Below, one piece after another: positions 1,435-23,689 of a DNA stretch of 64,000 nt. Source of the stretch: an uncultured Thermococci archaeon. Its GTDB lineage: Archaea > CAYQAE01 > CAYVLA01. The stretch's first letter is position 1; every line of letters begins with the position of its first letter. Made by a program: the position numbers and the translations under genes. The stretch lies in assembly GCA_964549615.1 (NCBI GenBank), contig CAZJVP010000018.1, positions 13,802 to 77,801 on the forward strand, given 5' to 3'. The notes below the pieces were generated by a model. That model was not told the DNA's origin, ran no database searches, and saw nothing but the letters and a program-made list of their open reading frames with translations.

Positions 1435-1437
1435 CCC

Positions 1438-1923: not shown

Positions 1924-2925
<1,002 letters not shown>

Positions 2926-3207
2926 TCATCCCGGCTTGGCTCCGGCCTCTCGCGCTACGGCCCGGTCGGCGGCCCCCAGACACATATCGCCTCTTCGAGG
3001 CGGTCGTTTTTCGAGATAGATTCTCACAAATCTGGAGGCATGTTGGAGCGGGGCTGAACGTGAAGGCCAAGGGCAACGCGCGGCCCTTCGCCGACGGACG
3101 TCCGTGCAGATGAAGAGCCGGTGGAAGACGCGGTGGAGGGCCCGGCCAAATCATCCCCATCGGTTGCAGGCAGAAGCCAAGGCTGTTTGCAGGAGACGGA
3201 ATGCCGC

Positions 3208-7090: not shown

Positions 7091-8941
7091 CTAGCCCTTC
7101 TTCCTCCACCTGAAACCCAGCGTGCCCATGACTAGAGTCACACCGCCGTAGGCTCCAACCGAGATAAGGTTCCCCAAGGCCTCGCCGAGCGTCGCGTCCT
7201 TTATCATGCCAGCCTTGAGAAGGTCTGCGACGTAGGTGATCGGCACGTACCTCGATGCCTGCCTCACTATGGAGGGGCTGAGTTCGAAGGGGTAGAAAAT
7301 GCCCGAGATGATCAGCATGATGAAACACAGGCCGAATGACGCCGTCAGGGCCTCAAGTTCGGTCTTGCTCACGGATGAGACCAACAGTCCGAGTCCAACG
7401 AAGCCAACCGAGGCGTATAGCCCAAAGAAGAAGGTCTTTGGCACGTTGACGATGTATATGTCGAATAGCAGCACGGCGCAGGCCGTCAGGATGATTATCT
7501 GCACGGCCGCGATTCCCAGGCAGACGAGGCACTTCCCCCCGACGTAGGTCCACCTGCCCACGTTGCAGACGAAGATCCTGCGGAGGATGCCCTTCTCCCT
7601 GTCCCTGACGACGCTCAGCACGGTGTAGACCAGGACCGAGAAGAGTATCCCGAAGGCGAAGATGCCGGGGGAGATGTAGTCGACATACCTCTTCCTCTCG
7701 GATCCGAAGTAGAGGGGCATCTCGGTGAGGTAGAGAGGGGATGTCAGGAACGCTTTTTCCATTTCGCCCACTCTCTCCAGCAGACTCTTTCCCTCTCTGC
7801 CGAGCTCGGCCAAGTCGACGGATTCAAGCCGCATCCGGACGGCCTCGACGCGTCGACTCATGTTGACGATTTCCAACTGTCGTGAGATGACCACATCCAT
7901 CAGGCTTGACGCGCTGCTCAGGACCGTCTCGGCGATCGATCCGATCTCCTCGGGGGTCTTGTCCGGGCTTTCGCTGGAGAGCGTCTGGATGAGCCTATCT
8001 CTTAGGAGGGGGAGCGCTAGCTTGATGATGGCGGCTTGCTCCGGCGTGATCTCCGAGAGGTTGGACGTGAAGCCAGACAGATCCGCGGCCATTTGCAGGG
8101 GCAGCCCCCCTACGTCGCCAAGGTGAGGATATGCGTACCTGAGGAAGTGGTAGCATGAATCAAGCAGCGGCTTTGAATCGGAGAGCCCTCTCAACGTGCC
8201 AACGACGGCGGATTGGTTTATCATCGAGACGAGCATTTTCTGCGCAGGCGTTCCGTTCGCCATGATCTCCCGCAGGCCGGTCTCAGTTGCGGCAACCATC
8301 GAGCTTATCGCGTCGTCATCGACAGACTCGATCTTGGCCAACAGATCTAGCGCGTCTCGGGTCTCCTGCCCGGATCGACCCTGCTCGAGCATGGCCTCGA
8401 TGCTCGTCAGAGCCTCCACGAGGCGGGGGATGATTCCCTCCTTCAGGCTCTTTACGTACGTCCAAGCTAGCTCGTCCACAACCTCTTCCTTAGCCTGGAG
8501 CATCGTCACCTCTATCGCTGCGGTCAGGAGCGGTCTCGTCTCGTCCGCATGGATCCGAATCCAGCTTCGTTTGAATTCCCTCATCTTCTCGGTTATCCAG
8601 GGGTCGACCTCGATGATGGAGTCGATCTTCTCGGCGACCAGATCCTTTCTGGCGTCCTCAACCGTTTCGTAGACGATGGCCGTCGCGTTCTGCTGCTCGA
8701 TCCCATCCACGATCATCTGGGCATAGGTCGAGTTGCGATGCTTCACCACCCCGATCACAAGCTCCCTCTTCTCGAACTGCTGGTAGCCTAGGCTGAATGT
8801 GACGCCGACCACGATGACCACGATGACCGGTAACACTATGGTCAGCAGGATGGTTCGCCTCTCGCGCGCTATCTTCCTCGCGTCTGTCAGGGCGATCCAG
8901 ATGGGCTTTCGACCAGCTGACAACGTCCTAGGCCCCCTCAT
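7091..8941 (-). CDS. ABC-2 type exporter permease with large extracytoplasmic helical domain
   Basis: N-terminal TM helix, ~350 aa soluble region, then YVDYISPG, VVRDREKGILRR, SGIFYP, PITY and C-terminal TM helices. Confidence 0.85.
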   Translation of the reverse strand: MRGPRTLSAGRKPIWIALTDARKIARERRTILLTIVLPVIVVIVVGVTFSLGYQQFEKRELVIGVVKHRNSTYAQMIVDGIEQQNATAIVYETVEDARKDLVAEKIDSIIEVDPWITEKMREFKRSWIRIHADETRPLLTAAIEVTMLQAKEEVVDELAWTYVKSLKEGIIPRLVEALTSIEAMLEQGRSGQETRDALDLLAKIESVDDDAISSMVAATETGLREIMANGTPAQKMLVSMINQSAVVGTLRGLSDSKPLLDSCYHFLRYAYPHLGDVGGLPLQMAADLSGFTSNLSEITPEQAAIIKLALPLLRDRLIQTLSSESPDKTPEEIGSIAETVLSSASSLMDVVISRQLEIVNMSRRVEAVRMRLESVDLAELGREGKSLLERVGEMEKAFLTSPLYLTEMPLYFGSERKRYVDYISPGIFAFGILFSVLVYTVLSVVRDREKGILRRIFVCNVGRWTYVGGKCLVCLGIAAVQIIILTACAVLLFDIYIVNVPKTFFFGLYASVGFVGLGLLVSSVSKTELEALTASFGLCFIMLIISGIFYPFELSPSIVRQASRYVPITYVADLLKAGMIKDATLGEALGNLISVGAYGGVTLVMGTLGFRWRKKG

Positions 8942-9866
8942 CTTCTGTCAGGACGTCGAACACCTCGTCGGGCGGTACCTCGAATGAGATCGACGATGCT
9001 TGGATTCCCTTTGCTTCCAAGAGCCCGACGAGGCTGAAGGCCTCCGACCGAGAATCCACTTCGATCTGCACGCCGCCCAGCGTTGGCAGGATCTTTCTCG
9101 GAGATACGAGAGCCGTCAACCTGCCCTCATCCACTTTCGGAATGCCCCTGACGATGAGCCGTGCTCTGCAGGCAGAGCTGATCGCGCCCCACGTTCCCTG
9201 GGAAACAACCCTTCCCCGATGAAGGACGGCCAGACGGTCGCACAGGCGGCTGGCGTCCAAGAGGTCGTGGGTCGTCAGAAGGCAGGTGAGGCCCTGCTCG
9301 CGGTTCATCTTAAGGATTAGCTTCTCGACATCCCTCTTCGTCCTCGGGTCGAAGCCCGCCGTGACCTCGTCGACCATGATCAGTTGCGGCGAATGGACTA
9401 TGGAGCACGCGAAGTGGACCTTCTTCTTCATCCCGACCGAATACGTTTCGACGGGATCGTCCTTGCGCTCAAGCAGCCCCATGAAACGTATCAGGCGGTC
9501 AACCTGTTCGCCCAGGGTGCCCGATGGGACATCCAGAAGCCTACCGAAGTACCTCAAGTTCTCCTCGGCGCTGAGCCTTTCCTCCACACTCGTTTCCTGC
9601 GGTATGACACCGATGATCCTCCGAAGCCTCGCCGCTTGGCGTATCGGGTCCAGGCCCAGTACCCTGATCCTCCCCGACGACGGCTTCACCATCCCCGACA
9701 GCACGTCGATGAGTGTGGACTTGCCCGCTCCGTTCGTGCCGACAATGCCGAAGATCTCGCCCTTCTTGATCTCAAGGTTGATGTTGCTCAGGGCCTGAAC
9801 CTTGCCGAAATTGACGGTGAGATCGACCACGCTTACTGCCGCTTCGGATTCCTGAGCTTCCGCCAT
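8928..9866 (-). CDS. ABC transporter ATP-binding protein (drug-exporter type)
   Basis: Walker A GTNGAGKST, signature YSVGMKKK, Walker B LIMVDE, TTHD. Start placed at ATG 9866. Confidence 0.93.
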   Translation of the reverse strand: MAEAQESEAAVSVVDLTVNFGKVQALSNINLEIKKGEIFGIVGTNGAGKSTLIDVLSGMVKPSSGRIRVLGLDPIRQAARLRRIIGVIPQETSVEERLSAEENLRYFGRLLDVPSGTLGEQVDRLIRFMGLLERKDDPVETYSVGMKKKVHFACSIVHSPQLIMVDEVTAGFDPRTKRDVEKLILKMNREQGLTCLLTTHDLLDASRLCDRLAVLHRGRVVSQGTWGAISSACRARLIVRGIPKVDEGRLTALVSPRKILPTLGGVQIEVDSRSEAFSLVGLLEAKGIQASSISFEVPPDEVFDVLTEDEGA

Positions 9867-9945
9867 CCGGGGTGCGGCTGGGAATGCCCGTCGATTAATA
9901 GGTTTTGGCCAGCCTAGCGACCCTTGGCTTCCCGACGAAAGACAA

Positions 9946-9974
9946 TTTAACAAGGCGTCGGTTTAATCGGGTGA
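9946..9974 (+). promoter_or_regulatory. TATA (TTTAA, 9946-9950) and SD (GGTGA, 9970-9974) of the mtd-ftr-hdr-fwd operon
   Basis: Purine-rich GAAAGA then TTTAAC about 33 nt before ATG 9981; GGTGA 6 nt before the start. Confidence 0.55.
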
Positions 9975-9980
9975 TCTCCC

Positions 9981-10817
9981 ATGGTTCATGTAGTCATCAT
10001 GAAGTGCGGCAACATCGCAACGTCCACCATGGTCGACCTTCTCCTGGACGAGATAGCCGCAAGAGATGATCTTCAAGTGACCGTGGTCGGTTCCGGCCCA
10101 AAGATGACTCCCGCCGAAACTACGCGGATAGCTGGGTACATCCCATCCACAAACCCCGACATCCTCGTGGTGTGCGGTCCAAATGCTGCCTCGCCGGGCA
10201 TGACGAGGCTTCGGGAGGCGCTCGCCGATGTCAAAGCGCCGAAGATAGTGATAGGAGATGGCCCTAGCAAGAAGGTGAAGGACAAGCTGGAACAGGAGGG
10301 TTTTGGATATCTGATAATGGAGGCGGATCCTCTCATCGGGGCAAGGCGCGAGTTCCTAGATCCGACCGAAATGGCGATCTTCAACGCGGATGTGATTAGG
10401 GTCTTGGCCACGGTGGGCAGCTTGAGAACCGTGCAGGAGGAACTGGACAAGGCCATACAGTCAGTGAAGAATGGAAAGGTGTATCTTCCCCGGTTGGTGG
10501 TATCCGAGTCCCGTTCCCTGGCAAAGGCCGGTTTTTCCAATCCCTATGCGAGGGCAAAGGCAGCGGTTGCCTTCCGACTTGCCGATCTTGCAGCCCAGGT
10601 CAACTATAACGCCTGCTTCGTCGAGAAGGACGTCAAGAAGTACATCAGGCTCGCGGCGGCAGCACATGAAGCAGTGAGGACGGCTGCCCAATTGGCGGAC
10701 GAGGCCCGCGAGATCGAGAAGGCATCGGACAAGGTCCTGAGAACCCCCCACTCTAGGAAGGGCAGGATTCTTCGGAAAAGGGCTTTGCTGGCCAAACCCC
10801 AGGAGGCGGTCCAGTGA
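9981..10817 (+). CDS. mtd: F420-dependent methylene-H4MPT dehydrogenase
   Basis: KCGNIATS..VDLLLDE, VVGSGPKM, ADPLIGARREFLDPTEMAIFNAD, FSNPYARAKA, VLRTPH. Confidence 0.95.
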   Translation: MVHVVIMKCGNIATSTMVDLLLDEIAARDDLQVTVVGSGPKMTPAETTRIAGYIPSTNPDILVVCGPNAASPGMTRLREALADVKAPKIVIGDGPSKKVKDKLEQEGFGYLIMEADPLIGARREFLDPTEMAIFNADVIRVLATVGSLRTVQEELDKAIQSVKNGKVYLPRLVVSESRSLAKAGFSNPYARAKAAVAFRLADLAAQVNYNACFVEKDVKKYIRLAAAAHEAVRTAAQLADEAREIEKASDKVLRTPHSRKGRILRKRALLAKPQEAVQ

Positions 10818-11716
10818 ACGGGGAAACAGTTGAGGACACGTTTGCGGAAGCCTTTCGGTCGTACTACTCCCGCGTGTTGATCACCGGCTCAACATCCGAG
10901 CTGGCTAGGACCGCCGCGGTCACCTCAACAGGATTCGCCACGTCGGCACTAGGATGCGGCGTTGAGGCTGGTATCGAGACTGAGCTTCCGGAGAAACAAG
11001 CGCCGGATGGCAGGCCCGGCATCATCTGCCAGTACCACATCTGGAGCAGGGACCCCAAGAAGATGTATGGAGTCCTGCTCGCTAGGATCGGGCACTGCGT
11101 TCTGACCGCCCCGAGTACCGCGGTTTTTGATGCTACGGCAAACCCCTTGGCCAAGATCGATCTGGGTGTGAAGCTCGGGTTCTTCGGCGATGGCTACGAG
11201 GAAGAAGGAGAGATCGGGGGCAGAAAGGTCATCATCATACCCATCATGGGGGGAGAGTTCAAGATCGAGAGAGAGGTGGGAATGAGCAAGGGCATCTCAG
11301 GGGGAAACCTGTGGTTCATGGGGTCCTCCCAGTCTGCTGCAATCGAGGCGGCACGGTCAGCCACAGCGGCAATAAGCGGAGTAAAGGGCGTCATCACCCC
11401 CTTCCCGGGCGGGGTCTGCAGCTCCGGATCCAAGGTGGGAGCCGAGAGGTACAAGTTCCTAGCCAACTCAACCAATCATCCCTATTGCCCAACGCTGAGG
11501 GGCAAGATCCGGGATTCCAAGGTTCCGAAGGGCGTGGAGTCCATTATGGAAGTAGTCATCAACGGAACCAGCCTCAAGTCTGTCCAAAGAGCAATGAAGG
11601 TGGGCATCGATGCAGCCCTTGGGACGAAGGGGCTCATCAGGATCTCCGCAGGGAACTTCGGCGGAAAACTTGGGCGGTTCAAGATCCATTTAAGAGACTT
11701 GCAGGATGCGCCGTGA
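10814..11716 (+). CDS. ftr: Formylmethanofuran:H4MPT formyltransferase
   Basis: VEDTFAEAF, TGFATS..GCGVEAG, PDGRPG, FFGDGYE, SGSKVG, ISAGNFGGKLG. Confidence 0.96.
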   Translation: MNGETVEDTFAEAFRSYYSRVLITGSTSELARTAAVTSTGFATSALGCGVEAGIETELPEKQAPDGRPGIICQYHIWSRDPKKMYGVLLARIGHCVLTAPSTAVFDATANPLAKIDLGVKLGFFGDGYEEEGEIGGRKVIIIPIMGGEFKIEREVGMSKGISGGNLWFMGSSQSAAIEAARSATAAISGVKGVITPFPGGVCSSGSKVGAERYKFLANSTNHPYCPTLRGKIRDSKVPKGVESIMEVVINGTSLKSVQRAMKVGIDAALGTKGLIRISAGNFGGKLGRFKIHLRDLQDAP

Positions 11717-11752
11717 CCATCGCCCCCGCAAACCCTTGAACGAGGCAAGCCA

Positions 11753-13201
11753 ATGCAGCACAGGCAAGAGCTCGAGAAGGTCCTCGATATCGACAAACTG
11801 AAGTACTGCTACGAATGCGGCATCTGCACATCCAGCTGCCCGGTCGCAGAGTTGATGCCAAGAGTGTACAATCCACGAAGCCTGCTCCAACAGATCCCAC
11901 TCGATTTCCAGCAGGCCACGAAGAGCAAGGAGATCTGGCTTTGCGCATGGTGCTACCGGTGCTACAGGAGGTGTCCGCAAGGGCTTAGAGTTCCGGATAT
12001 TCTCTTGCTGCTCAAGGACACTGCAGCCCAGAGCGGATCCCTTGAAGGATTCAAAGAGGCATTGGAGGTGATCCTCAGAGAGGTCCCTTTGCCCTTGGCC
12101 TGCCTATACGCTTGCTTCAACCCTGCGCGAGGCAACGTGGAGAAGCCGGGGACAATCGAGGCCGTGAGGCACCTGGTGGCCAACTACCGGCACCTGACAA
12201 GAGGGGAGAAAGCCGACATCGCCAGCCCCCGAAAGGAGAGGATAGCCATAGTGGGATCGGGTCCGGCCGGCCTGACCGCCGCCCAGGAGCTCGCGAAGAA
12301 GGGATACTTGGTCACCGTGTTCGAATCGATGCCCAGACCTGGCGGCATGTTGGGTTGGTGCATACCGGCATATAGGTTGCCAAGAGAGGCCGTCGAGGCT
12401 GAGATCCAACGGATAAGGGACCTCGGGGTCGACTTCCGAACCAATGTGACGGTCGGCAAAGACCTGTCCATCGACGACATCTTGAAGGAAGGCTACGATG
12501 CCTTGTTCATCGCCATAGGAGCCCAGAAGGTGAGAAAGCTCGGCATTGAGGGCGAGAACCTCCGCGGGGTCCTTGATGCCCTTGACTTCCTGAGGAAGGC
12601 AGGCACAGGAGAGAAGATCGAACTCGGAAACAAGGTTGCGGTGGTTGGTGGCGGAGATGTGGCGATGGATGCAGCCAGGATCGCTAGGGTTGCCCTCCAT
12701 CTTGGAGCAAAGGATGTCACGATACTGTACAGGAGGTCGAGAGACGAGATGCCGGCAAACCCCTGGGAGGTCAAGGAAACCGAGGATGAGGGCGTCAGGA
12801 TCGAGTTCCTGGTTGCGCCCAAGAGGATCCTGGGCAAGGATGGACGCGTTGCGGCCTTGGAGTGCGTTCGCATGAAGCTGGGAAGGCCCGACCAAACCGG
12901 CAGGAGAAGGCCAATACCGATCCAAGGATCTGAGTTCATGATGGAGGTCGACAGCGTGATACCGGCGATAGGCGAAAGCCCAAGCCTCTTTCCGCTCCCA
13001 AAGGGGGTCAGGATCACGAAAAGAAACACCATCGCGGCCGATCCTTTCACCCTCCAGACCGGCGTTCCTGGAATATTTGCCGGAGGCGATGTTGTACGCG
13101 GGCCGTCGACGGTGATCGAGGCCGTGGTGGACGGAAAGAGGGCCGCAGAATCGATTCACCGATACCTGCTAGACAGATCCAAGACGGGCCAAGGTGGTTG
13201 A
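11753..13201 (+). CDS. Fusion: HdrC-like 2x[4Fe-4S] domain + GltD/NfnB-like FAD/NAD(P)H oxidoreductase
   Basis: CYECGICTSSCP and IWLCAWCYRCYRRCPQG (HdrC-type); then IVGSGPAGL, GGML..IPAYRLP, VVGGGDVAMDAAR, YRRS..EMPA, FAGGDVVRGP. Confidence 0.88.
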   Translation: MQHRQELEKVLDIDKLKYCYECGICTSSCPVAELMPRVYNPRSLLQQIPLDFQQATKSKEIWLCAWCYRCYRRCPQGLRVPDILLLLKDTAAQSGSLEGFKEALEVILREVPLPLACLYACFNPARGNVEKPGTIEAVRHLVANYRHLTRGEKADIASPRKERIAIVGSGPAGLTAAQELAKKGYLVTVFESMPRPGGMLGWCIPAYRLPREAVEAEIQRIRDLGVDFRTNVTVGKDLSIDDILKEGYDALFIAIGAQKVRKLGIEGENLRGVLDALDFLRKAGTGEKIELGNKVAVVGGGDVAMDAARIARVALHLGAKDVTILYRRSRDEMPANPWEVKETEDEGVRIEFLVAPKRILGKDGRVAALECVRMKLGRPDQTGRRRPIPIQGSEFMMEVDSVIPAIGESPSLFPLPKGVRITKRNTIAADPFTLQTGVPGIFAGGDVVRGPSTVIEAVVDGKRAAESIHRYLLDRSKTGQGG

Positions 13202-15653
13202 GATGCCGGAAGCGGAAGCCATCGGAAAGACGATCACGGAAACCGCCCTGCCTGTCCGAGACGATGAGATTAGAGTAGGCGTCTATGTCTGCCATTGTGG
13301 ACTGAATATCGCGGGCTCCGTTGACTGCGAGGAAGTGGCAAGATTCGCCGGGGGCCTTCCGGATGTCGTCGTTTCAAGGAGTAGCCGTTACACCTGCTCG
13401 GACCAGGGACAGGAACTGATCAAGAGCGACATCAAGGAACACAAGCTGAACCGCGTTGTGGTTGCGTCCTGCACACCTCGTCTCCACGAACCCACCTTCA
13501 GAAAGGCGTGTGAGGAAGCCGGATTGAACAAGTATCTCTTTGAGATGGCAAACATCAGAGAGCACTGCAGCTGGATACATCTCTACGAGAAGGAAAAGGC
13601 CACTGAGAAGGCCAAGGACCTTGTCAGGATGGCCGTGGCCAAGGCCCGATTTCTGCAACCACAGGTTGAGCTTGAAGTCCCGGTCACAAGGCGGACACTC
13701 GTTGTGGGCGGGGGAGTCGCAGGCATCCAGGCGGCCCTAGATCTCGCAGATGCTGGTTACCAGGTGTACCTCGTGGAGAAGAACCCGAGCATCGGCGGCA
13801 GGATGGCGCAGATAGACAAGACCTTCCCGACCATGGACTGTTCCATCTGCATCCTCGCGCCCAAGATGTCGGAAGCGGGAAGGCATCCAAACATCGAGTT
13901 GATGACGAATAGCGAGGTCATTGAGGTAAGTGGTTACATCGGCAATTTCAAGGTAAAGGTATTGAAGAAGCCAAGATACGTGGTGAAATGTAACAGCTGT
14001 GGTGAGTGCGCCAACGTATGTCCCGTCCAGGTCCCAAACGAGTTCGACGCAAACTTCGCCCCAAGAAAGGCCATCTACATCCCCTTTGCACAAGCGGTCC
14101 CGTCCACGTACATAGTGGACATGGATCACTGCATAAGGTGTTACGAGTGCATCAAGGCCTGCAAGGTCGCCGGTGCGGGGGCCATCGACTTCAATCAGAA
14201 GCCCGAAGTGGAGGAACGTGAGGTCGGCACGATCATCGTGGCAACGGGCGCGGATGTGTACGATCCCAGTTCGCTCACCGAGTATGGGTACGGGAGATAC
14301 GCAAACGTGATAACGTCGCTTGAGTTCGAACGCCTGATAAATGCCGGGGGCCCATCGGGCGGCCGGCTGATCCGGCCCAGCGATGGCAAGATCCCGGAGT
14401 CGGTGGCCTTCATCCAGTGTATTGGTTCGCGATCGGACAGGAGTGGTCACCTGTACTGTAGCAACGTCTGCTGTATGAACACGATCAAGGATGCCTTGCT
14501 CATAAAGGAGCACTGGCCGGAAACGAAGATCTACGTCTTCTATCTCGACATAAGGGCCTTCGGCAAAGGGTTCGAGGACCTGTTCAAGAGGGCAAAGAAG
14601 GAGGGCGTCATTTTCATCCGCGGCCTGCCGGCCGAGATCTACGAGAACGGAAGGAAGAACCTGATTCTCACCGGCGAGAACACTTTGAGGGGGGAGATCT
14701 ATAACATCGAGGTCGGACTAGTAACACTTTCGGTCGGGCTTAGGCCCGGACAGGACGCGGATATCGTCCAACGGCTCTTCAACCTATCCAGGACCCCGGA
14801 TGGCTTCTTCATGGAGGCGCATCCGAAGCTTCGTCCAGTGGATGCTCCAACGGGAGGCATATTCTTCGCGGGGTGCGCGGAATCCCCAAAGGACATCAAG
14901 GACTCCGTGACCCAAGCCAGCGCGGCGGCGGCGAGGGCAAACATCCTCATGGCTAAGGGAAGCGTGACGGTCGAAGCAATAACGCCCACTCTGATTCGGG
15001 AGAACTGCAAGGCCTGTGGGCTTTGCGCCAAAGTCTGCCCCTACAACGCCATTCGCGTCGACAAGGAGACGAAAACGACGGAGGTGATCGACGCGGCCTG
15101 CGCGGGATGCGGAACCTGCGGCGCAGAGTGCCCCTCGGGTGCGTTGGTCATGCGCCATTTCACGGACCAACAGATCATGGCCCAGATCGACGCAGCGACG
15201 GAAGATGACGCTGGAAAGAAGGTCATTGCCTTCTGCTGCAACTGGTGCTCATATGCAGCAGCGGATTTTGCTGGAGTCAGCAGGATGCAGCAACCCACTC
15301 TTGCCCGCGTGATCCGGACCATGTGCTCGGGAAGGGTGACAAGCAAGTTCATCGAACGGGCTTTTTCTAGAGGCGCAGGTGCTGTCCTGGTTTCCGGTTG
15401 CCACCCGGGTGACTGTCACTACATCAATGCCAACTACCAGACCCAGAAGCGAGTCGAGAGATTCTGGAAGACGATGGAAAAGAAAGGATTGGATAGGAGG
15501 CGGCTCCAGCTAGCCTGGTTCAGCGCTGCGGAGGGCGAGGCCTTTGCAAGGAAAATCAAGGAAATGCAGGAGATCGTGGAGAGCCTGACTCCCGACGAGA
15601 TCGAGAGATCGAAGGCGGTCTGGAAGACGGCTGTCGAGGCTGAGTCATCTTGA
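13194..15653 (+). CDS. hdrA: Heterodisulfide reductase subunit A fused to a C-terminal MvhD domain
   Basis: VYVCHCGLNI, VASCTPRLHE, NIREHCSW, GGGVAG, DKTFPTMDC, IQCIGSR, CSNVCC, two ferredoxin domains; MvhD motifs FCCNWCSY, MCSGRV, GCHPGDCHY. Confidence 0.95.
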   Translation: MVEMPEAEAIGKTITETALPVRDDEIRVGVYVCHCGLNIAGSVDCEEVARFAGGLPDVVVSRSSRYTCSDQGQELIKSDIKEHKLNRVVVASCTPRLHEPTFRKACEEAGLNKYLFEMANIREHCSWIHLYEKEKATEKAKDLVRMAVAKARFLQPQVELEVPVTRRTLVVGGGVAGIQAALDLADAGYQVYLVEKNPSIGGRMAQIDKTFPTMDCSICILAPKMSEAGRHPNIELMTNSEVIEVSGYIGNFKVKVLKKPRYVVKCNSCGECANVCPVQVPNEFDANFAPRKAIYIPFAQAVPSTYIVDMDHCIRCYECIKACKVAGAGAIDFNQKPEVEEREVGTIIVATGADVYDPSSLTEYGYGRYANVITSLEFERLINAGGPSGGRLIRPSDGKIPESVAFIQCIGSRSDRSGHLYCSNVCCMNTIKDALLIKEHWPETKIYVFYLDIRAFGKGFEDLFKRAKKEGVIFIRGLPAEIYENGRKNLILTGENTLRGEIYNIEVGLVTLSVGLRPGQDADIVQRLFNLSRTPDGFFMEAHPKLRPVDAPTGGIFFAGCAESPKDIKDSVTQASAAAARANILMAKGSVTVEAITPTLIRENCKACGLCAKVCPYNAIRVDKETKTTEVIDAACAGCGTCGAECPSGALVMRHFTDQQIMAQIDAATEDDAGKKVIAFCCNWCSYAAADFAGVSRMQQPTLARVIRTMCSGRVTSKFIERAFSRGAGAVLVSGCHPGDCHYINANYQTQKRVERFWKTMEKKGLDRRRLQLAWFSAAEGEAFARKIKEMQEIVESLTPDEIERSKAVWKTAVEAESS

Positions 15654-17410
15654 AGTGCATCCTGAACACCGGCAGGACATTGGAACAGGGCGTGGCATTG
15701 GAGGCTGGCAAGACATCGCAGCAGTACTATGAGGCTACCGCTCTGGCCTACGTCAACGATGACGACATGGAGGATCTGGGGTTGGAAGAGAATATGCCAA
15801 TGGAGATCTCCACGGAGTCTGGGTCGGTTGTCGTAAGATGCAGGAAGGGCTGGATAGACCGGGGCCAGATCTTCATGCCCTGGGGCCCCTGGGCCAACGC
15901 GATCGTGGGTTCCGACACATCGGGGACTGGCATGCCAAGATATAAGGGCGTTGAGGTGGAGGTCAGCCCAACCAACAAGCCGATTACAACGCTCCACGAT
16001 CTCTTCGTTGAGAAGGACAGGATGGTCAGAGCCGTCAGCGAGATTCCGAGATACTCCCCAAGCGCAACTACCCAGCTCGAGTCCAAGGGGCAGGGCGAGA
16101 GTGTTCAAACCACAATCAGCAACGTGGTCTGTCCTTTCTGTGGCTGCCTGTGTGATGATGTGGAGATCGTGACTGAGAGGGGAAGAATAGTAGATGCGGT
16201 AGTGGGTTGTGAGCTTTCCAAGAGCAGGTTCCTGAATTGGGACAAAGATCGAGTCAAACCGGCGATCAGGAAGGATGGGAAACTTGTCGAAGTGACCCTT
16301 GACAAGGCTATAGAAAAGGCGGCCGAGATTCTCAGAAAGGCCGACTACCCTCTGATCTACGGCCTGAGTTCAACGGAAGTGGACGCTCAGAGGGCAGCCA
16401 TCAACCTTGCTGAGATGATCGGTGCAACAATCGATAACACAACCTCGGTATGCCACGGTCCAACCACGCTTGCTGCCCAAGATTGCGGTGTGCCGGAGAT
16501 GACATTGGGGGAAGTGAGAAACAGAGCCGACTTAGTCATCTACTGGGGATGCAATCCCGCGGAGGCACACATCCGACACGTAACGCGGTACGCCACGACT
16601 CCGAAGGGCATGTTCATCAAAGGCGGAAGAAAAGACCGATTCGTGATCCACGTGGACGTTAGGGAAACGAAGACCGCGAAGGCTGACCCCAGGTGGCACT
16701 TCGTCTACCAACTCGCCAACATGTTCGTGAAAGTTAGACCCGGCCAGGACTACGAGCTGTTCTCGGCCCTAAGGGCCAGGTTAAGGGGACATGAGGTGGG
16801 TGAAGTTGCCGGGGTGCCCGCAAGCACTATCGACGACCTCGTCAACCGAATGAAGACGTGCAAGTTCGGAGTCATATTCTTTGGTCTGGGTCTCACAATG
16901 TCGAGCGGCCGGCACATGAACATCGATGCAGTCCTGCGACTGGTCAGAGACCTGAATGACCACACCAAGTTCACGATCCTCCCGATGAGGGGCCACCACA
17001 ACGTAGCGGGGATCAACCATGTGATGCTGTGGACCACGGGATACCCCTATGCCGTCAACTTCTCGCGAGGCTATCCCATCTACAACCCGGGCGAGTTCTC
17101 GGCCGTGGACGTGCTTGCCCGAGGGGAATGCGATGCAGCCTTGATAGTCGCATCCGACCCGGTCGCTCACTTCCCGGTCCAGGCCGTCAAGCATCTTGCT
17201 GGAATCCCAACGATCGTAGTCGACCCGAAGATGAGCATGACCTCGCTGATGGCCGAGGTTCTGATCCCATCCGCGATAGCAGGAATCGAGTGCGACGGAA
17301 CCGCCTATCGAATGGATGGCGTGCCCATCAGGCTCAGGAAGGTCGTCGATTCAGCATTCGAGCCAGACAAGCTGATCTTGGATAGGATCATCGAGAGGGT
17401 CCGGAGTTGA
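15650..17410 (+). CDS. fwdB: Formylmethanofuran dehydrogenase subunit D-B fusion (Mo/W-pterin)
   Basis: FwdD part LNTGRTLEQG...MPWGPWAN...TGMPRYKG; FwdB part CPFCGCLCDD, SVCHGP, EVRNRAD, WGCNP, PMRGHHNV, AYRMDGVP. Confidence 0.93.
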   Translation: MKCILNTGRTLEQGVALEAGKTSQQYYEATALAYVNDDDMEDLGLEENMPMEISTESGSVVVRCRKGWIDRGQIFMPWGPWANAIVGSDTSGTGMPRYKGVEVEVSPTNKPITTLHDLFVEKDRMVRAVSEIPRYSPSATTQLESKGQGESVQTTISNVVCPFCGCLCDDVEIVTERGRIVDAVVGCELSKSRFLNWDKDRVKPAIRKDGKLVEVTLDKAIEKAAEILRKADYPLIYGLSSTEVDAQRAAINLAEMIGATIDNTTSVCHGPTTLAAQDCGVPEMTLGEVRNRADLVIYWGCNPAEAHIRHVTRYATTPKGMFIKGGRKDRFVIHVDVRETKTAKADPRWHFVYQLANMFVKVRPGQDYELFSALRARLRGHEVGEVAGVPASTIDDLVNRMKTCKFGVIFFGLGLTMSSGRHMNIDAVLRLVRDLNDHTKFTILPMRGHHNVAGINHVMLWTTGYPYAVNFSRGYPIYNPGEFSAVDVLARGECDAALIVASDPVAHFPVQAVKHLAGIPTIVVDPKMSMTSLMAEVLIPSAIAGIECDGTAYRMDGVPIRLRKVVDSAFEPDKLILDRIIERVRS

Positions 17411-19035
17411 GTGTCGTCACAAGCAGTCTTGTCATAAGGAACGGCACCGTCTACGACCCGGCCAATGGGATAGACGGGGAGAAGATGGACCTGTTCATCG
17501 AGAACGGAAAGATGGTCGAGGAAACCAGAGGCAGGGAGATAGACGCATCAGGATTGGTTGTGTTCCCCGGGGGGATCGATATCCATTCCCACATCGCAGG
17601 GTCCAAGGTCAACCTCGGCAGGCTGTTCAGGCCGGAGGACCACAGGAAGGACCATGTCAGCAGGACCCACCTTACAAGAAGCGGCGTGGGATACTCGGTT
17701 CCGACGACCTTTGTGACCGGTTACAGATATGCCAAGCTCGGCTACACAACTATCATGGAGGCTGCAAGCCCTCCCCTGATGACGAGGCATACTCACGAGG
17801 AACTGAATGACACCCCCATCGTCGACAAAGCGTGCTACACTCTCATGGGAAACAATCACTTCGTCATGGACTACATCAAGAAGGGAGAGATGGAGAAACT
17901 CCGAGATTACGTGGCTTGGCTCCTGAACGCCACGAAGGGATATGCGGTGAAGATAGTCAACCCCGGCGGCGTGGAGAACTGGAAGTGGGGCAGAAATGTG
18001 GAAAGCATAGATGACAAGGTCGACAACTATGAGGTCACCCCCAGAGAGATACTGGTTGGCCTCTCTAGGGTCAACGACGACCTTGGTCTGCCGCATGCGA
18101 TACACGTTCACGCCAACAATCTGGGTTCGCCCGGCAATTACGAGACCACCCTGCAGACCATGGACGCTGTGAAAGGCAGAATGCATCTGACCCATCTGCA
18201 GTTCCACTCGTACGCGGGAGACAGCTGGGCCAAATTCAGCTCCGGCGTCGACGAGGTGGTCAAATCAGTGGATAAACACGACAACATCACATGCGATATG
18301 GGCCAGGTGATCTTCGGCGACACTACCACGATGACGGCCGACGGCCCGTGGCAACACCGCCTCTATGGGCTGACGGGCAACAAGTGGTTCAATGCTGATG
18401 TAGAAATGGAGACCGGAGCGGGGGTCGTTCCCTACTACTTCACCAGGAAGAGTCCCGTTAACTCGGTTCAGTGGGCAATAGGTCTGGAGATTGCCCTCAT
18501 GGTCAAAGATCCTTGGAAGGTCTGCCTCACGACCGACCATCCCAACGGGGGACCCTTCTATATGTACCCAAAGGTCATCTCGTGGCTCATGAGCAAGAAG
18601 GCGCGGGACCAAACCCTAGGATCGATCCACAAGGCCGCCTCCGCTAGAACTGCCCTGCCCAGCCTCGATAGGGAGTACTCCCTCTACGACATCGCCATCG
18701 TCACGAGGGCAGCGCAGGCCCGGGCCCTGGGGCTGAAGAACAAGGGGCATTTGGGGGTTGGAGCCGACGCCGACGTGGCGATCTATGAGTTCGCCGAGGA
18801 CCACGTACAGCGCTCCTTCTCGAAAACGCGGTACACAATCAAGGAGGGAAGGGTCGTCGCTGTGAACGGAGAGATCGTCGACTCGTTTCAAGGAAGAACC
18901 TTTTGGGCTGATGCTCAGGGCGGGGTGACCGATGAGGTCAGGGAAGCATTTGCGAAATACTACACGGTCTCGTTTGAGAATTATCCCGTTCAGGACGATT
19001 ATCTACCCAGAGCCGAGGCCGTTCCATGTGGCTAG
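17407..19035 (+). CDS. fwdA: Formylmethanofuran dehydrogenase subunit A
   Basis: VYDPANG, DIHSHIAG, KIVNPGG, HVHANNLG, TADGP, TTDHPNGGP, GHLGVGADAD. Confidence 0.97.
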   Translation: MSVVTSSLVIRNGTVYDPANGIDGEKMDLFIENGKMVEETRGREIDASGLVVFPGGIDIHSHIAGSKVNLGRLFRPEDHRKDHVSRTHLTRSGVGYSVPTTFVTGYRYAKLGYTTIMEAASPPLMTRHTHEELNDTPIVDKACYTLMGNNHFVMDYIKKGEMEKLRDYVAWLLNATKGYAVKIVNPGGVENWKWGRNVESIDDKVDNYEVTPREILVGLSRVNDDLGLPHAIHVHANNLGSPGNYETTLQTMDAVKGRMHLTHLQFHSYAGDSWAKFSSGVDEVVKSVDKHDNITCDMGQVIFGDTTTMTADGPWQHRLYGLTGNKWFNADVEMETGAGVVPYYFTRKSPVNSVQWAIGLEIALMVKDPWKVCLTTDHPNGGPFYMYPKVISWLMSKKARDQTLGSIHKAASARTALPSLDREYSLYDIAIVTRAAQARALGLKNKGHLGVGADADVAIYEFAEDHVQRSFSKTRYTIKEGRVVAVNGEIVDSFQGRTFWADAQGGVTDEVREAFAKYYTVSFENYPVQDDYLPRAEAVPCG

Positions 19036-19102
19036 ATCAGGACAGGGCATCAGTTTCATCGTGGGACACGGGTTCGAGCAGCAATCCGCGTGAGGGAGCA
19101 CC

Positions 19103-19915
19103 GTGATCAGGCTTAGACCGAGACAGGAATCGAGAATCCCAGTGGAGGCGGAATGCATATCGCCCGACGCCTTCTCGGGGAAGTCGGCAGCGCAAGTGGA
19201 GGATATGAAGATCCTATGGGGCAACAAGACGAAGAGGTTGGTCGATCTCTTCGAGGTCGTTGAGGATCCGGCAGAGCCTAACGAGATAGTGGTGGACGGG
19301 GACGTGAGATTCGTCAAGCATATCGGCGCCAAGATGAGCATGGGAAGGGTGATCGTGAACGGCGATGCGGGCATGCACCTCGGCCGGGGGATGGCGGGGG
19401 GCGAGATAATCGTAAACGGAGATGCTGGGGACTGGCTGGGAACGGAGATGGTCGGCGGGCTTATCAGAGTTAAGGGAAACGTGGGAAACTTGGCTGGGTC
19501 TGCCTACCGGGGCTCCAAGTCCGGCATGAAGGGTGGGATGATCGTCATCGAGGGGGGTGCAGGCGATGAGCTGGGCGAGTTGATGGAGGGTGGAACGATA
19601 GCCGTGAAAGGCAACGTGCAATCATTTGCGGGGGCGCTGATGTCGGGCGGGGCGATCGTTTGCTTCGGGGGTCTGGGCGGGAGACCGGGCGCTGGGATGA
19701 CCAACGGAACCCTACTTGCCTTCAGCCAGCCAAGGCTTCTTCCGACGTTCAGATACGCGCGAACGTACAAACCGACTTTCATCAAGCCTATCCTTGAGGA
19801 GCTTAGGAAGCAAGGCCTCCCAGTGGAAGACCGGCAGATAGAAGGCTTGTACGACGCGTACGAGGGAGATCTTGCATGCGACGGGAAGGGGAAGATCCTC
19901 GTTTGGAAAGACTAG
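19103..19915 (+). CDS. fwdC: Formylmethanofuran dehydrogenase subunit C
   Basis: PVEAECISPD, WGNK, repeated GxxMxGGxIxVxG beta-helix, AYRGSKSGMKGG, LLPTF, GDL..GKG. Confidence 0.96.
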   Translation: MIRLRPRQESRIPVEAECISPDAFSGKSAAQVEDMKILWGNKTKRLVDLFEVVEDPAEPNEIVVDGDVRFVKHIGAKMSMGRVIVNGDAGMHLGRGMAGGEIIVNGDAGDWLGTEMVGGLIRVKGNVGNLAGSAYRGSKSGMKGGMIVIEGGAGDELGELMEGGTIAVKGNVQSFAGALMSGGAIVCFGGLGGRPGAGMTNGTLLAFSQPRLLPTFRYARTYKPTFIKPILEELRKQGLPVEDRQIEGLYDAYEGDLACDGKGKILVWKD

Positions 19916-20956: not shown

Positions 20957-23689
20957 CTAATCCAGTACCAAGGTTGCCTTGACTAGGGAGGGGTCCACGC
21001 TCTGGATGGTGAATTCCATCTTGCGACAGATGTGTATCATCCTTTCGTTCTCTGCACTTATCAAGCCCCAGATGGAGGCCAGCTTCTTGTCTTCGGCGAT
21101 TCCGATCATCTTATCCACTAGCTTGGTCCCCAAGCCCAGTCCCTGCCAAGGATCTCCGACGAGCACGGAAATTTCAGCCGACTTTCCGTCGGGCCCCACG
21201 AGCAGCCTCGCCATGCCGATGATCTTCCTCTTGCCCTTTTCGACCAACTCTGCAACGATGGCCATCTCACGGCGATAGTCTATGTTCGTGAGGCGAACCA
21301 GATCCTCATGCTCTATTTGTTTTAAGGCTCCGAAGAACCCGAACCTGATCGACTGGGGTGACAATGCCTTGAGCAGCTTCCACAGCAGGGGCTCGTCCTC
21401 GGGCCTGACAGGTCGAAGGGTCACGGGCCGCCCGTCTCTGAGCGCCCATTGCTCAATGTATTTTCCGGGGTACGGTTGGATGACCAGATGGGAGCGTGGC
21501 TCAACCCCCGAGATTGCGAGATCCTTGTCAATAACGATCCTTGCGTCTAGGGCGATGAATTCCCGGCCGACGACGGCCAACGGGTTGATATCGACCTCGC
21601 GGATCTCAGGAAAGTCGATGATCATCTGCGAGAAGCGGACTAGATACTCCTCAAGATAGTCCAGCTTGACGGGGGGTTTGCTCCGGTAGCCTTGAAGCAG
21701 CGAGTAGACCTTCGTCTGTTCCATCAGCCTCCTAGCTAGAACGCGGTTCAGCGGAGGCAAGCCCACGGCTATGTCTCGATAGATCTGCACGCCCGTTCCC
21801 CCTTGGCCGAACATTATCGCAGGGCCAAACGTCGGGTCCGTTTTGCACCCAAGAATAAGCTCATAATCCACGCCCGTCACCATCTTCTGGACGGTGACCC
21901 CAAACAACCGGGCGGAAGGATCGTGCTTCTTGGCATTGGCCATAATCTCGTCGAACGCGTTTCTGACCTCCGCGCACGAATTCAGCCCCAGCACAACGCC
22001 GCCACAGTCGCTCTTGTAGGTGATGTCGGGGGAGTAGATCTTCAGAACCACGGGGAATCCTATGCTTGACGCCACGTTCATGGCGGCGCTCGCGCTCTCA
22101 GCGACGCGCGTCTCAACAACCGGAATGCCGTAGGTCTGCAGGAACTTCTTGGACTCCTCCTCCGTGAGTATGTGTCGTCCGCTGCGGGCGACCCTAACCA
22201 CCATAGCCTTGAGATGGTTCCTTGGAGGGATCGCTTCAACCGGCAACTCCTCGGGGGTCTGGTATAGCTGCTCCAAGTTCCTGGAGTATTGGTACATGTA
22301 CATGTAGGACTTCACGGCCCTCTCCGGGGACGAGTAGGCTGGTATGCGTTTCTCTCGGAGGAGCTCAAGTCCCGCCTCGACCTTCCTTTTTCCGAGAAAA
22401 GATGCAAGAATCGGTTTCCTGCCTGTTCTCGGTAGCTCTGTAATCGCCCTTGCAACGTCATCGGAGGATGCCGCCCCTTGCGGCGTGTATATCACCAGAA
22501 TTCCGTCGACGTTCTTGTCTCCGATACAAGCCACAATCGCGTTGCGGTATCGTTGGCCGTCCGCATCCCCTCCGATGTCGACGGGATTTTTCTTGCTAGC
22601 ATGGGAGGGCAGCACCCTTGATAGAGTCCCCACAGTCTCTCTTGAGAGCTGTGGTAGTTCCCCGCCTCTTTCAAGCAACACGTCGGCGGCCATGATGCCA
22701 GGGCCGCCGGCGTTCGTTATTATCGCGAGCCTAGAGCCTCTTGGAGGTCTCTGCGTCGCCAAGATCTCCGAGACGTTGAAGAGATCCTCTATCTCATCTA
22801 CCCTTGTGATGCCAACCCTCTGGAAGGCCGCGTCAAAGACCTTGTTCTCATCGGTCAAAGACCCCGTGTGCGATACAGCGGTATGAGATGCTGCGGCCTC
22901 TGCGCTCTGAGCGAACTTGCCCGACTTGATTGCCACGATGGGCTTGGTCCTTGAAAAGGCCCTTGAGGCGCTGAGGAAGTTTGGCGCGTCCGTGACCGAT
23001 TCTATGTACATGAGGATGCTTCGGGTCTCGGGGTCCTGCCCGAAGAAATCGATCAGATCCCCGAAGTTGATGTCGGCCATGTTCCCCAACGATACGAAGC
23101 TGCTGAATCCAACATTCGTATCCATGGACCAGTCCAGAATTGCCGAACCCAAGGCACCGCTTTGCGAGATCAATGCGATGTTCCCCATTCTAGGCATCTG
23201 GTCCGCGAAACTTGCGTTCAACCCTATCGAGGGGACGATCAGGCCGAGGCAGTTTGGGCCGAGAATCCTCATGCCATACCTGCGTCCCGCGTCGATGACC
23301 TGGTTCTCCAACGCCGCGCCCGAGGGACCAACTTCCCTGAAGCCTGCCGACACTATGATGATCGCAGGAATCCCAGCCTCCCCACAATCCTCCACGATCG
23401 CTGGAACCGTCGGAGCAGGGGTGGCGATGACCGCCAGGTCGACGGGACTTGCAAGCTCTTTGACGGTGGCGTGGCAACTGATTCCCAAGACAACGCTTCG
23501 ATTTGGGTTAATCGGGTGCACCTCGCCACGATATCCCTTGATCAGGTTCTCCATTATCGTGCGTCCGACGGAGCCGCTTTCTTCGCTGGCCCCGACGACT
23601 GCGATGGTATCCGGCCTAAACATTTTCTGGAGGTTCTCCACTCCCATGGGGGTGATCTCCAGCCCCGCGCTCATGGGCTTTCTGCCCAT
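20957..23689 (-). CDS. Acetate-CoA ligase (ADP-forming)-like alpha+beta domains fused to a C-terminal GNAT (Pat/Pka-type architecture)
   Basis: AVVGAS, LGPNCLG, SQSGALG, SHTGSL, TNAGGPG, NPVD, ATP-grasp KSDCGGV/DINPL; GNAT motif VGDPWQGLGLG. Confidence 0.92.
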   Translation of the reverse strand: MGRKPMSAGLEITPMGVENLQKMFRPDTIAVVGASEESGSVGRTIMENLIKGYRGEVHPINPNRSVVLGISCHATVKELASPVDLAVIATPAPTVPAIVEDCGEAGIPAIIIVSAGFREVGPSGAALENQVIDAGRRYGMRILGPNCLGLIVPSIGLNASFADQMPRMGNIALISQSGALGSAILDWSMDTNVGFSSFVSLGNMADINFGDLIDFFGQDPETRSILMYIESVTDAPNFLSASRAFSRTKPIVAIKSGKFAQSAEAAASHTAVSHTGSLTDENKVFDAAFQRVGITRVDEIEDLFNVSEILATQRPPRGSRLAIITNAGGPGIMAADVLLERGGELPQLSRETVGTLSRVLPSHASKKNPVDIGGDADGQRYRNAIVACIGDKNVDGILVIYTPQGAASSDDVARAITELPRTGRKPILASFLGKRKVEAGLELLREKRIPAYSSPERAVKSYMYMYQYSRNLEQLYQTPEELPVEAIPPRNHLKAMVVRVARSGRHILTEEESKKFLQTYGIPVVETRVAESASAAMNVASSIGFPVVLKIYSPDITYKSDCGGVVLGLNSCAEVRNAFDEIMANAKKHDPSARLFGVTVQKMVTGVDYELILGCKTDPTFGPAIMFGQGGTGVQIYRDIAVGLPPLNRVLARRLMEQTKVYSLLQGYRSKPPVKLDYLEEYLVRFSQMIIDFPEIREVDINPLAVVGREFIALDARIVIDKDLAISGVEPRSHLVIQPYPGKYIEQWALRDGRPVTLRPVRPEDEPLLWKLLKALSPQSIRFGFFGALKQIEHEDLVRLTNIDYRREMAIVAELVEKGKRKIIGMARLLVGPDGKSAEISVLVGDPWQGLGLGTKLVDKMIGIAEDKKLASIWGLISAENERMIHICRKMEFTIQSVDPSLVKATLVLD

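Follow-up and report, generated by a model that had tools for sequence, protein, structure and literature searches.

Electron bifurcation by HdrA lets methanogens make electrons of very low potential, and in these organisms it is tied to the heterodisulfide that coenzyme M forms with coenzyme B (CoM-S-S-CoB). What, then, does an HdrA do in an archaeon that encodes neither HdrB nor methyl-coenzyme M reductase (Mcr)? The question is raised by a stretch of 64,000 nt from an uncultured Thermococci archaeon (the window, in whose coordinates positions are given; the host genome is labelled G000), which carries an operon at 9981-19915 on the (+) strand. Its seven same-strand open reading frames (ORFs) are mtd, ftr, a fusion of an HdrC-like domain with an NfnB/GltD-like flavoprotein module (P0001), HdrA2::MvhD (P0002), a fwdD::fwdB fusion, fwdA and fwdC (Table 1), a composition proposed in a preliminary description of the window and borne out by the ORF positions and by Pfam and NCBIfam matches. 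The explanation that accounts best for the data, to which we assign a probability of roughly 0.45, is that P0002 and P0001 together form an HdrB-free module that (con)furcates electrons between F420, NADP and ferredoxin, i.e. a heterodisulfide-independent version of HdrA2-type flavin-based electron (con)furcation in which P0001 would stand in for HdrBC.

The host assembly (3.21 Mb, 99.46% complete, 2.81% contamination) contains no match to McrA (PF02249), HdrB (TIGR03288) or the CCG domain (PF02754). The phylum was sampled with five genomes, and CCG and McrA are missing from all five; the CCG model was positive in 12 of 14 control genomes. A canonical HdrBC, which had been named as the partner that would compete with P0001, is therefore not to be found in the genome, nor is there a separate HdrC-like gene when the genome is searched with P0001 as query. 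The preliminary description had noted that the window lacks hdrB, mvhA/G, fdh, fwdF/G and mcr. For hdrB, mcr and mvhA this absence extends to the whole genome, and no FwdF reaches its cut-off there, but the window does contain an FrhB/FdhB-like gene at 34251-35462 (-). P0002 is the sole HdrA detected in the genome by tblastn. A 1022-aa ORF on contig C52 was considered as a second HdrA-like protein and rejected, being a fusion of NuoF with GltD that belongs to a Hox-like hydrogenase cluster. As a lineage that keeps HdrA2 intact, next to what appears to be a purpose-built NADPH subunit, without HdrB, CCG protein or Mcr, it may be regarded as a natural knock-out, and because of this lack HdrA2 must work here without disulfide chemistry.

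The N-terminal part of P0001 is HdrC-like without being a full-length HdrC. TIGR03290 aligns to residues 17-101 over model positions 2-86 of 144, with 69.7 bits against a cut-off of 160, and the C-terminal part of HdrC that binds HdrB is missing. The domain is also matched by PF13183 (Fer4_8-type fold, 2.3e-09) and carries two CX2CX2CX3CP motifs, C19/22/25/29 and C64/67/70/74, which are invariant in all 20 homologues aligned. The flavoprotein half matches the NADPH-binding module of NfnB, NfnL and NfnABC. It has the motifs GSGPAGL (FAD) and GGGDVA..YRRS..EMPA (NADPH), the closest solved sequences to its C-terminal ~370 residues are 9n5u_A (9.6e-97), 4ylf_B and 5jca_L, and the alignments to 9n5u_A and 9bov_A share GXGXXA and YRR(S/T)..EMPA, a stretch which we take, partly after PMC12054007, as a sign of NADPH preference. 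Scores against curated GltD-type families stay below the cut-offs (TIGR01316, 319.7 bits against 471.75; PRK12771, 362.7 against 516; NF009410, also below). An AlphaFold2 model of P0001 has a pLDDT of 85.1 and a pTM of 0.86, and the top Foldseek match of P0001 is 5jca_L (NfnL, E 1.8e-40), followed by NfnABC, Xfn, NfnB, StnC, GltD and DPD. The canonical Fer4_20 cluster domain is not recognizable, as PF14691 has no match on P0001 and the site is degenerate ('ACLYACFNP', with only C121 invariant), compared to 'CGRVCxxPCExxC' in type III HdrA.

Type III HdrA refers to proteins in which an NfnB/GltD module is inserted in the HdrA ferredoxin domain, known from some ANME-1 and Bathyarchaeota (PMC9012536, PMC12054007; here and below, statements on published work refer to the available excerpts of the papers cited). 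That P0001 might be such an insert in excised form, docking at the inserted ferredoxin domain, was first suggested by tblastn overlaps and was rejected. The type III insert keeps the canonical Fer4_20 motifs of NfnB, while P0001 has an HdrC-type domain instead, and its identity to the insert (~40-47%) shows no clear excess over that to ordinary GltD/NfnB paralogues (39-43%). The partner subunit, P0002, is itself no type III fusion, as HdrA2 and P0001 are separate ORFs, each with its own start, and P0002 has an unbroken inserted ferredoxin domain (C266-276, C313-323). The NF040770 match covers residues 27-804 of P0002, a [2Fe-2S] MvhD domain forms its C-terminus, and the FAD motif and all cluster Cys motifs are intact, the latter being invariant in 20 of 20 aligned HdrA2 homologues. 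The thioredoxin-reductase domain has a single cluster site, C409/C422/C426/C427.

It is at this site that the HdrC-like domain is predicted to dock. The complex prediction combined HdrA2 residues 27-819, thus including the MvhD domain and the inserted ferredoxin domain, with residues 1-150 of P0001, using an alignment of 20 rows for each. Three runs gave ipSAE values of 0.54, 0.64 and 0.64 (best of three controls, 0.00), a result classed as supporting binding by a mark that 58 of 80 solved complexes and two of 110 mismatched pairs reach. At least 96% of the contacts are common to the runs, and the partner pLDDT is at least 70. Residues 15-42 (the first cluster motif) and 73-77 of P0001 contact HdrA residues 363, 409, 413-417, 420, 451-452, 477-481 and 493-502, and the model, although given the choice, selected neither the MvhD domain nor the inserted ferredoxin domain. 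According to a figure legend in PMC12350162, the high-potential electron moves from FAD via HA4 to CoM-S-S-CoB, HA3 is the C-terminal shuttle cluster and HA5 lies on the path to the inserted ferredoxin domain. As HA3 and HA5 are assigned elsewhere, the contacted cluster would be HA4, and the HdrC-like domain of P0001 would then occupy the canonical HdrC site of HdrA.

Comparative analyses show that the two genes form a conserved pair. Relatives of P0001 number in the thousands; among the best 120, which show 49-74% identity, almost every protein is full-length at ~470-530 aa (one has 578 aa), and the named ones are Bathyarchaeota. The named HdrA2 relatives at 73-83% identity are Bathyarchaeia, with one exception carrying a bacterial name, and contigs of matching size recur in many cases between the listed homologues of P0001 and those of HdrA2. 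In a survey of 80 genome_contigs loci from species genomes, the GltD-like module lies inside HdrA (type III) in 43, a standalone P0001-type gene is followed by HdrA2 in four (three filed as Bathyarchaeia and one, L001, as a metagenome-assembled genome of Anaerolineales), a standalone gene has another or no HdrA beside it in 13, and 20 are plain GltD-like. The pair itself was followed through 85 loci, 80 from metagenomes and five from the genome set (four Bathyarchaeia and L001), mostly on Bathyarchaeia-type contigs. A standalone P0001-type gene is present in 75 of these, 65 of which are informative in having at least 300 nt downstream, and in 59 of the 65 HdrA2::MvhD (at least 65% identity) follows directly, with a median gap of 59 nt; the remainder have another HdrA-like gene (4/65) or something else (2/65). 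Where HdrA2 is complete (45 loci), the next gene encodes a 2x[4Fe-4S] ferredoxin of ~92-107 aa in 33 and a polyferredoxin of ~320 aa in three. At least one subunit of a 2-oxoacid:ferredoxin oxidoreductase (OFOR) is found within the next four ORFs in 36 of the 45, alpha, beta and gamma subunits together in 29, and of the nine loci lacking OFOR, seven break off within 1.2 kb. What is conserved is thus P0001-HdrA2-(ferredoxin/OFOR), and the host genus has Fwd where OFOR stands elsewhere.

Conservation of the gene order, on which the preliminary description had relied, accordingly holds for the P0001-HdrA2 pair, but the linkage to Fwd is limited to one genus, where it is present in both genomes. 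No fwd gene was found near P0001-type genes in the 80 genome_contigs loci and only one instance in the 80 metagenome loci; mtd is near such genes only in L009 and L184, and ftr likewise is hardly ever close to them. The metagenome instance (L170) has a fused fwdD::B at 2-1516 (-), 44% identical, divergent from a P0001 homologue at 1844-3205 (+), and the contig stops there, leaving HdrA2 beyond view. Within the phylum, P0001 and HdrA2 occur only in the two genomes of the host genus, the second of which has an identical operon with 58-80% protein identity. The sister genus G002 (L106, G002:C1:12000-31000) has mtd-ftr-fwdD-fwdB-fwdA-fwdC at positions 8503-14672 (-), with fwdD and fwdB unfused and without the pair. 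As this syntenic locus is bordered like that of the window, by two ABC transporter genes at one end and a metallo-beta-lactamase (MBL)-fold gene at the other, the pair was added to a pre-existing C1 operon. Identity between the window and G002 is 62-68% for Mtd and Ftr and 36-48% for the Fwd subunits, and the fwd genes of the host genus may have come together with the pair.

In the proposed mechanism, HdrA2::MvhD would provide the bifurcating FAD and the Fe-S arms, and the HdrC-like dicluster of P0001 would dock by the cluster of the HdrA thioredoxin-reductase domain. Electrons would run from the HdrA FAD via HA4 and the two HdrC-type clusters to the NfnB/GltD-like FAD, which would exchange hydride with NADP(H). 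The enzyme would thereby have three ports: NADP(H) on P0001, the flavin of HdrA itself and the low-potential Fe-S arm. The second hydride carrier would most likely be F420(H2), which would react with HdrA2 the way it does in Methanosarcina. The inserted ferredoxin domain, as the low-potential arm, would serve a ferredoxin-type partner, which in Bathyarchaeia-type contigs would be the downstream ferredoxin with OFOR and in the host genus ferredoxin or the co-operonic Fwd. The sole experimental guide to the flavin port of HdrA is HdrA2 of M. acetivorans, which as a recombinant protein on its own catalyses ferredoxin-dependent F420 reduction (Km 6.4 uM, with NAD no substitute) and together with HdrB2C2 bifurcates F420H2 (PMC5296606). 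For this reason the simplest net reaction would be 2 F420H2 + NADP+ + Fd(ox) <-> 2 F420 + NADPH + Fd(red), where Fd is ferredoxin, a reversible and F420-linked counterpart of the Nfn reaction.

At reported potentials of -360 or -380 mV for F420, -420 to -520 mV for ferredoxin and -320 mV for NAD(P) (PMC5861303, PMC6019823, PMC5296606), the mean potential of the acceptors in this reaction lies below that of the donor. The direction favoured under standard conditions would therefore be from NADPH and reduced ferredoxin to 2 F420H2, feeding Mtd in a reductive Wood-Ljungdahl pathway. This direction fits the host, which needs F420H2 for Mtd, lacks Frh and may draw on sugars, 2-oxoacids or its hydrogenases (NAD(P)-linked and membrane-bound) for NADPH and reduced ferredoxin, and in which CofH (F420 biosynthesis) and Fno are encoded in the genome and the Mtd of the operon is F420-dependent. 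The Bathyarchaeia clusters agree with it as well, in that OFOR would be the supplier of reduced ferredoxin there. The preliminary description had instead suggested that NAD(P)+/NAD(P)H could replace the heterodisulfide and that CO2 <-> formyl-methanofuran could be coupled to NAD(P)H and H2 or F420H2, leaving the direction undecided. With CO2/formyl-methanofuran at about -530 mV and NADP+ at about -320 mV, a reduction of CO2 to formyl-methanofuran from F420H2 with NADP+ as the high-potential sink would be clearly endergonic at standard potentials, and the reverse is favoured. What stands of the idea that an NAD(P) flavoprotein replaces the heterodisulfide arm is the fusion itself, its HdrC-like N-terminus, the NADPH-type fold and the predicted docking, but not the role of NADP+ as a driving sink.

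A number of points weigh against this explanation. Fno would connect the F420 pool with that of NADP, thereby tending to short-circuit the coupling and to turn the enzyme into a dissipative ferredoxin:F420 route, unless the pools are kept separate or the enzyme uses NAD. The NADPH preference of P0001 is deduced from a motif and from fold likeness to NfnB/NfnL, and F420 binding by P0002 from family membership. HA4 was identified by elimination from a figure legend, and the docking used self-built alignments of 20 rows. Moreover, the docking pass may reflect the memory of the model for solved HdrA-HdrC complexes, and hence likeness rather than binding; the anticipated position of the HdrC domain at the canonical HdrA interface is a modelled one (ipSAE 0.64, best control 0.00). 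In the Bathyarchaeia genomes that have the pair, CCG-domain proteins are encoded elsewhere in four of four; an HdrBC-type partner is possible in these, and the strict absence of HdrB applies to the host phylum only. Direct contact between Hdr and Fwd is weakly supported, the linkage being confined to one genus with no FwdF connector found. As to the completeness of the methyl branch, no canonical Mer exceeds its cut-off in the genome (best TIGR03555 match 98.9 bits, against 348.7).

The alternatives differ in what P0001 and HdrA2 would be doing together, if anything. The pair could be a plain non-bifurcating wire, an NADP+:ferredoxin or NADPH:F420 oxidoreductase running downhill without energetic coupling. 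HdrA2 alone is already a ferredoxin:F420 oxidoreductase (PMC5296606), GltD-like modules, represented among the fold matches by GltD and DPD, are often simple NADPH electron-input units, and the three carriers lie so close in potential that coupling gains little. Yet a three-armed, fully conserved HdrA exceeds the needs of a two-substrate wire: in the two HdrA arms and in MvhD, every cluster motif is invariant across all 20 HdrA2 homologues, and a ferredoxin gene is kept with the pair in most loci. We therefore regard a wire as unlikely. Dispensing with the complex altogether, P0001 would be an independent NADPH:acceptor oxidoreductase of SudA/Xfn type next to an HdrA2 acting alone as a ferredoxin:F420 oxidoreductase. 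The activity of HdrA2 alone in vitro would allow this, and neighbouring genes often fail to encode binding partners (the predictor passed seven of 44 blind neighbours). It is nevertheless improbable given that the two genes keep their order and their short distance in 59 of 65 loci, over a range of ~50-75% identity, that the docking model passed with controls at 0.00, that a similar module is fused into HdrA in 43 of the 80 genome_contigs loci and that an HdrC-type domain has no known role beyond bridging HdrA to a partner.

The assignment of the bifurcating flavin can also be reversed. The NfnB-like FAD of P0001 could be the bifurcating, or a second bifurcating, flavin, with NADPH as mid-potential donor, one electron passing by the HdrC-like clusters and HdrA to Fwd or OFOR and the second reaching an acceptor of higher potential via HdrA/MvhD. 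The best fold and sequence matches are indeed bifurcating subunits (NfnL and NfnB; 5jca_L and 4ylf_B), the genes beside the pair encode the two CO2-handling enzymes of lowest potential (Fwd in the operon, OFOR at other loci), and two bifurcation sites were raised by Chadwick et al. for fused HdrA-NfnB (PMC9012536). The pair has, however, no NfnA/NfnS-like [2Fe-2S]/FAD partner beside it, the canonical Fer4_20 Cys residues of NfnB are lost, and the genome shows no obvious high-potential acceptor, which leaves this arrangement with a low probability. A version based on H2, also put forward in the preliminary description, would have a hydrogenase feed the fused MvhD and HdrA bifurcate the electrons to NAD(P)+ and Fwd or ferredoxin, the net result being a bifurcating hydrogenase. 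Its energetics are the best balanced of all, with H2 near -414 mV between NADP+ near -320 mV and ferredoxin near -500 mV, and the MvhD domain is intact. Against it, the [NiFe] large subunits (PF00374) of the genome are found at three loci on other contigs, none near the operon, and are 3d-like, 3b-like and group-4; the large subunits of Mvh (3c) and Frh (3a) are not among them, and a hydrogenase occurs among the conserved neighbours in none of the 85 related loci. H2 as donor is hence unsupported, and this version is judged very improbable. Finally, characterised HdrA-type complexes mostly end in HdrB-like or DsrC-type disulfide chemistry (see PMC5296606), and a thiol/disulfide substrate might be reached through an unrecognised disulfide reductase without a CCG domain. 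The chance of this is slight indeed in view of the missing CCG domain and McrA; ComA was not found either, a weak argument as the M. acetivorans control was also negative.

With the HdrB-free (con)furcating module as the preferred explanation, its components can be placed among known systems. HdrA2B2C2 of M. acetivorans (Yan, Wang and Ferry 2017, PMC5296606) likewise has HdrA fused to MvhD, with F420H2 as donor and ferredoxin as low-potential acceptor. Unlike that system, the genome encoding P0002 lacks HdrB2, HdrC2 and the heterodisulfide, the place of HdrB2C2 is taken by the HdrC-like::NADPH flavoprotein, and the host is a non-methanogen. The 'HdrA9-11' of ANME-1 (Chadwick et al. 2022, PMC9012536) and 'type III HdrA' (Microbiol Spectr 2025, PMC12054007) resemble the pair in bearing an NfnB/GltD-type module on HdrA, with NAD(P)H proposed as an extra partner. 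Their module is inserted in the low-potential arm and has the NfnB cluster motifs, whereas P0001 is separate and predicted at the HdrC site, and the excerpts of these papers concern methane-metabolising archaea with HdrBC. NfnAB/NfnSL (4ylf, 5jca) and NfnABC (9n5u, 9bov) contain, in their NADPH-binding FAD subunit, the nearest solved relative of the C-terminal 370 residues of P0001, and the reaction proposed here would, as in Nfn, couple two hydride carriers of similar potential and ferredoxin. It would differ in that there is no NfnA/NfnS, the N-terminal Fe-S domain is replaced by one of HdrC type, the bifurcating flavin is presumably that of HdrA, and F420 would replace one pyridine nucleotide.

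The complexes of methanogens, MvhADG-HdrABC, Fdh-Hdr-Fmd and Elp-Hdr(-Fmd) (5odh, 7bkc; PMC12350162), share with the operon an HdrA core and MvhD that are genetically tied to formylmethanofuran dehydrogenase, in methanogens also physically, and in them high-potential electrons take the route FAD-HA4-HdrC and low-potential ones leave by the inserted ferredoxin domain (PMC12350162). Here, in contrast, an arm formed by hydrogenase, Fdh or Elp is missing, as are HdrB and a polyferredoxin connector (FmdF/MvhB), and the sink would be NADP+ at about -320 mV compared to about -140 mV for the heterodisulfide of methanogens, so that the energetics of CO2 reduction do not carry over. A non-methanogenic HdrA tied to pyridine nucleotides has precedents in MetFV-HdrABC-MvhD (Moorella) and FlxABCD-HdrABC (Desulfovibrio) (PMC5861303, PMC10553843), but these retain HdrB and HdrC and take NADH via separate Flx or MetF-type subunits. 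That the arrangement might be undescribed is correct in part. Fusions of NfnB/GltD on HdrA are already in print (PMC9012536, PMC12054007), but a split HdrC-type::NADPH-flavoprotein subunit paired with HdrA2, HdrB-free and linked to OFOR or Fwd, was not found described in full-text searches of the literature; the HdrA survey of Appel et al. 2021 and the supplements of papers may mention it. In a figure legend of PMC11697101 an 'MvhB' gene (2886), a possible homologue of P0001, adjoins 'MvhD/hdrA' (2887).

The source of F420H2 and reduced ferredoxin for the Wood-Ljungdahl pathway of Bathyarchaeia, on whose contigs the pair is common, is treated as open in genome papers (PMC7886697, PMC11697101). 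More broadly, a heterodisulfide-free HdrA2 bifurcase might balance F420, NADP and ferredoxin in non-methanogenic Wood-Ljungdahl archaea, with its low-potential arm plugged directly into OFOR (Bathyarchaeia) or Fwd (the host genus), in the latter case as an Hdr-Fwd supercomplex without HdrB, hydrogenase or polyferredoxin. We consider this extension doubtful. If true, the Hdr-Fwd coupling of methanogens would be a special case of an older and more general wiring scheme of HdrA. The question is directly testable, since the enzyme has two subunits, the assays are clear and there is a recombinant precedent in M. acetivorans HdrA2.

The 43 type III loci of the species-genome survey (L006-L075) are mostly bacterial, filed as Desulfobacterota, Chloroflexota, Bacillota, Zixibacteria and others, and far exceed in number the nine archaeal sequences discussed in the excerpts of PMC12054007. 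The bacterial type III HdrA usually adjoins a second, split HdrA-like gene and mvhD.

The coordinates of the operon are given in Table 1. Overlaps of 4 nt join mtd to ftr, hdrA to fwdDB and fwdDB to fwdA. At the P0001/hdrA junction there is an overlap of 8 nt if hdrA starts with GTG at 13194, or a spacer of 1 nt with ATG at 13203, the start of the database form P0137 (816 aa). Between ftr and P0001 lie 36 nt, and between fwdA and fwdC 67 nt.

Table 1. Genes and domains of the operon in window coordinates.
Feature	Position	Strand	Evidence
mtd, F420-dependent methylene-tetrahydromethanopterin (H4MPT) dehydrogenase, 278 aa	9981-10817	+	PF01993 2.3e-112; NF002162 372.6 bits (cut-off 297)
ftr, formylmethanofuran:H4MPT formyltransferase, 300 aa	10814-11716	+	PF01913, PF02741; NF002554 397.9 bits (cut-off 297)
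P0001 fusion, HdrC-like::NfnB/GltD-like, 482 aa	11753-13201	+	TIGR03290 on residues 17-101 (2.5e-19); GltD/NfnB-type models on ~45-477
P0001 residues 1-101, HdrC-like 2x[4Fe-4S] domain	11753-12055	+	TIGR03290, invariant Cys
P0001 residues 102-482, helical linker and NfnB/GltD-like FAD and NADPH module (by similarity)	12056-13201	+	PF07992 2.5e-34
HdrA2::MvhD (P0002), 819 aa (GTG 13194) or 816 aa (ATG 13203)	13194-15653	+	NF040770 1244.9 bits (cut-off 1100); PF02662 2.9e-46, residues 677-798
fwdD::fwdB fusion, 586 aa, redox subunit of formylmethanofuran dehydrogenase	15650-17410	+	NF042908 on 1-120; TIGR03129 567.2 bits on 158-584
fwdA, amidohydrolase subunit, 542 aa	17407-19035	+	TIGR03121 802.9 bits (cut-off 392.75)
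fwdC, 270 aa	19103-19915	+	TIGR03122 270.4 bits (cut-off 130.65)

FwdA, FwdB and FwdC all exceed the cut-offs of their families (TIGR03121, TIGR03129 and TIGR03122). FwdB aligns to 5t5i_B with 3.7e-139, retaining the CPFCGxLCDD motif and, within SVCHG, a Cys aligned to the metal ligand Cys118 of the M. wolfeii enzyme. As the cluster motif and the Cys118 equivalent are retained, a redox-active Fwd is expected. No FwdF (NF042909) exceeds the cut-off of 375 in the genome, the best match having 44.5 bits; FwdG was not searched for. Mtd, Ftr, Fwd and CODH/ACS are all encoded, and the step from methylene to methyl may use a divergent or different enzyme.

Two of the hydrogenase loci have features of their own. 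A Hox-like cluster (G000 C52:2406-10054, L101) encodes a NuoE-like protein of 193 aa, the NuoF::Fer4_20::GltD-like protein of 1022 aa and a NuoG-like protein of 660 aa with a molybdopterin-oxidoreductase domain, followed by the small and large hydrogenase subunits. With these subunits the cluster resembles enzymes of the Bfu/NfnABC type, and the hydrogenase may be connected to NADH as well as NADPH. The group-4 membrane-bound [NiFe] hydrogenase (G000 C104:~78900-86500, L104) is accompanied by Mrp-type antiporter subunits and a 457-aa polyferredoxin with eight Fer4 repeats, and is a possible ion-gradient-driven source of reduced ferredoxin. The remaining locus is sulfhydrogenase-like, with four genes including FAD/NAD and Fer4_22 subunits.

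The surroundings of the operon in the window are ordinary for a Wood-Ljungdahl archaeon, with a CODH/ACS cluster at ~26.6-34.3 kb (-). Directly upstream of cdhA lies the FrhB/FdhB-like gene mentioned above, which encodes an F420-binding Fe-S flavoprotein of 403 aa, as judged by family likeness, with an N-terminal 2x[4Fe-4S] domain. This protein could link CODH to F420, and a 'CODH'-associated group of FrhB paralogues is mentioned in PMC9012536. Closer to the operon, at 20957-23689 (-), is a gene for an ADP-forming acetyl-CoA synthetase of 910 aa, in which the alpha and beta parts are fused and an extra C-terminal GNAT acetyltransferase domain is present; in the second genome of the genus an ORF of 939 aa is found at the matching position.

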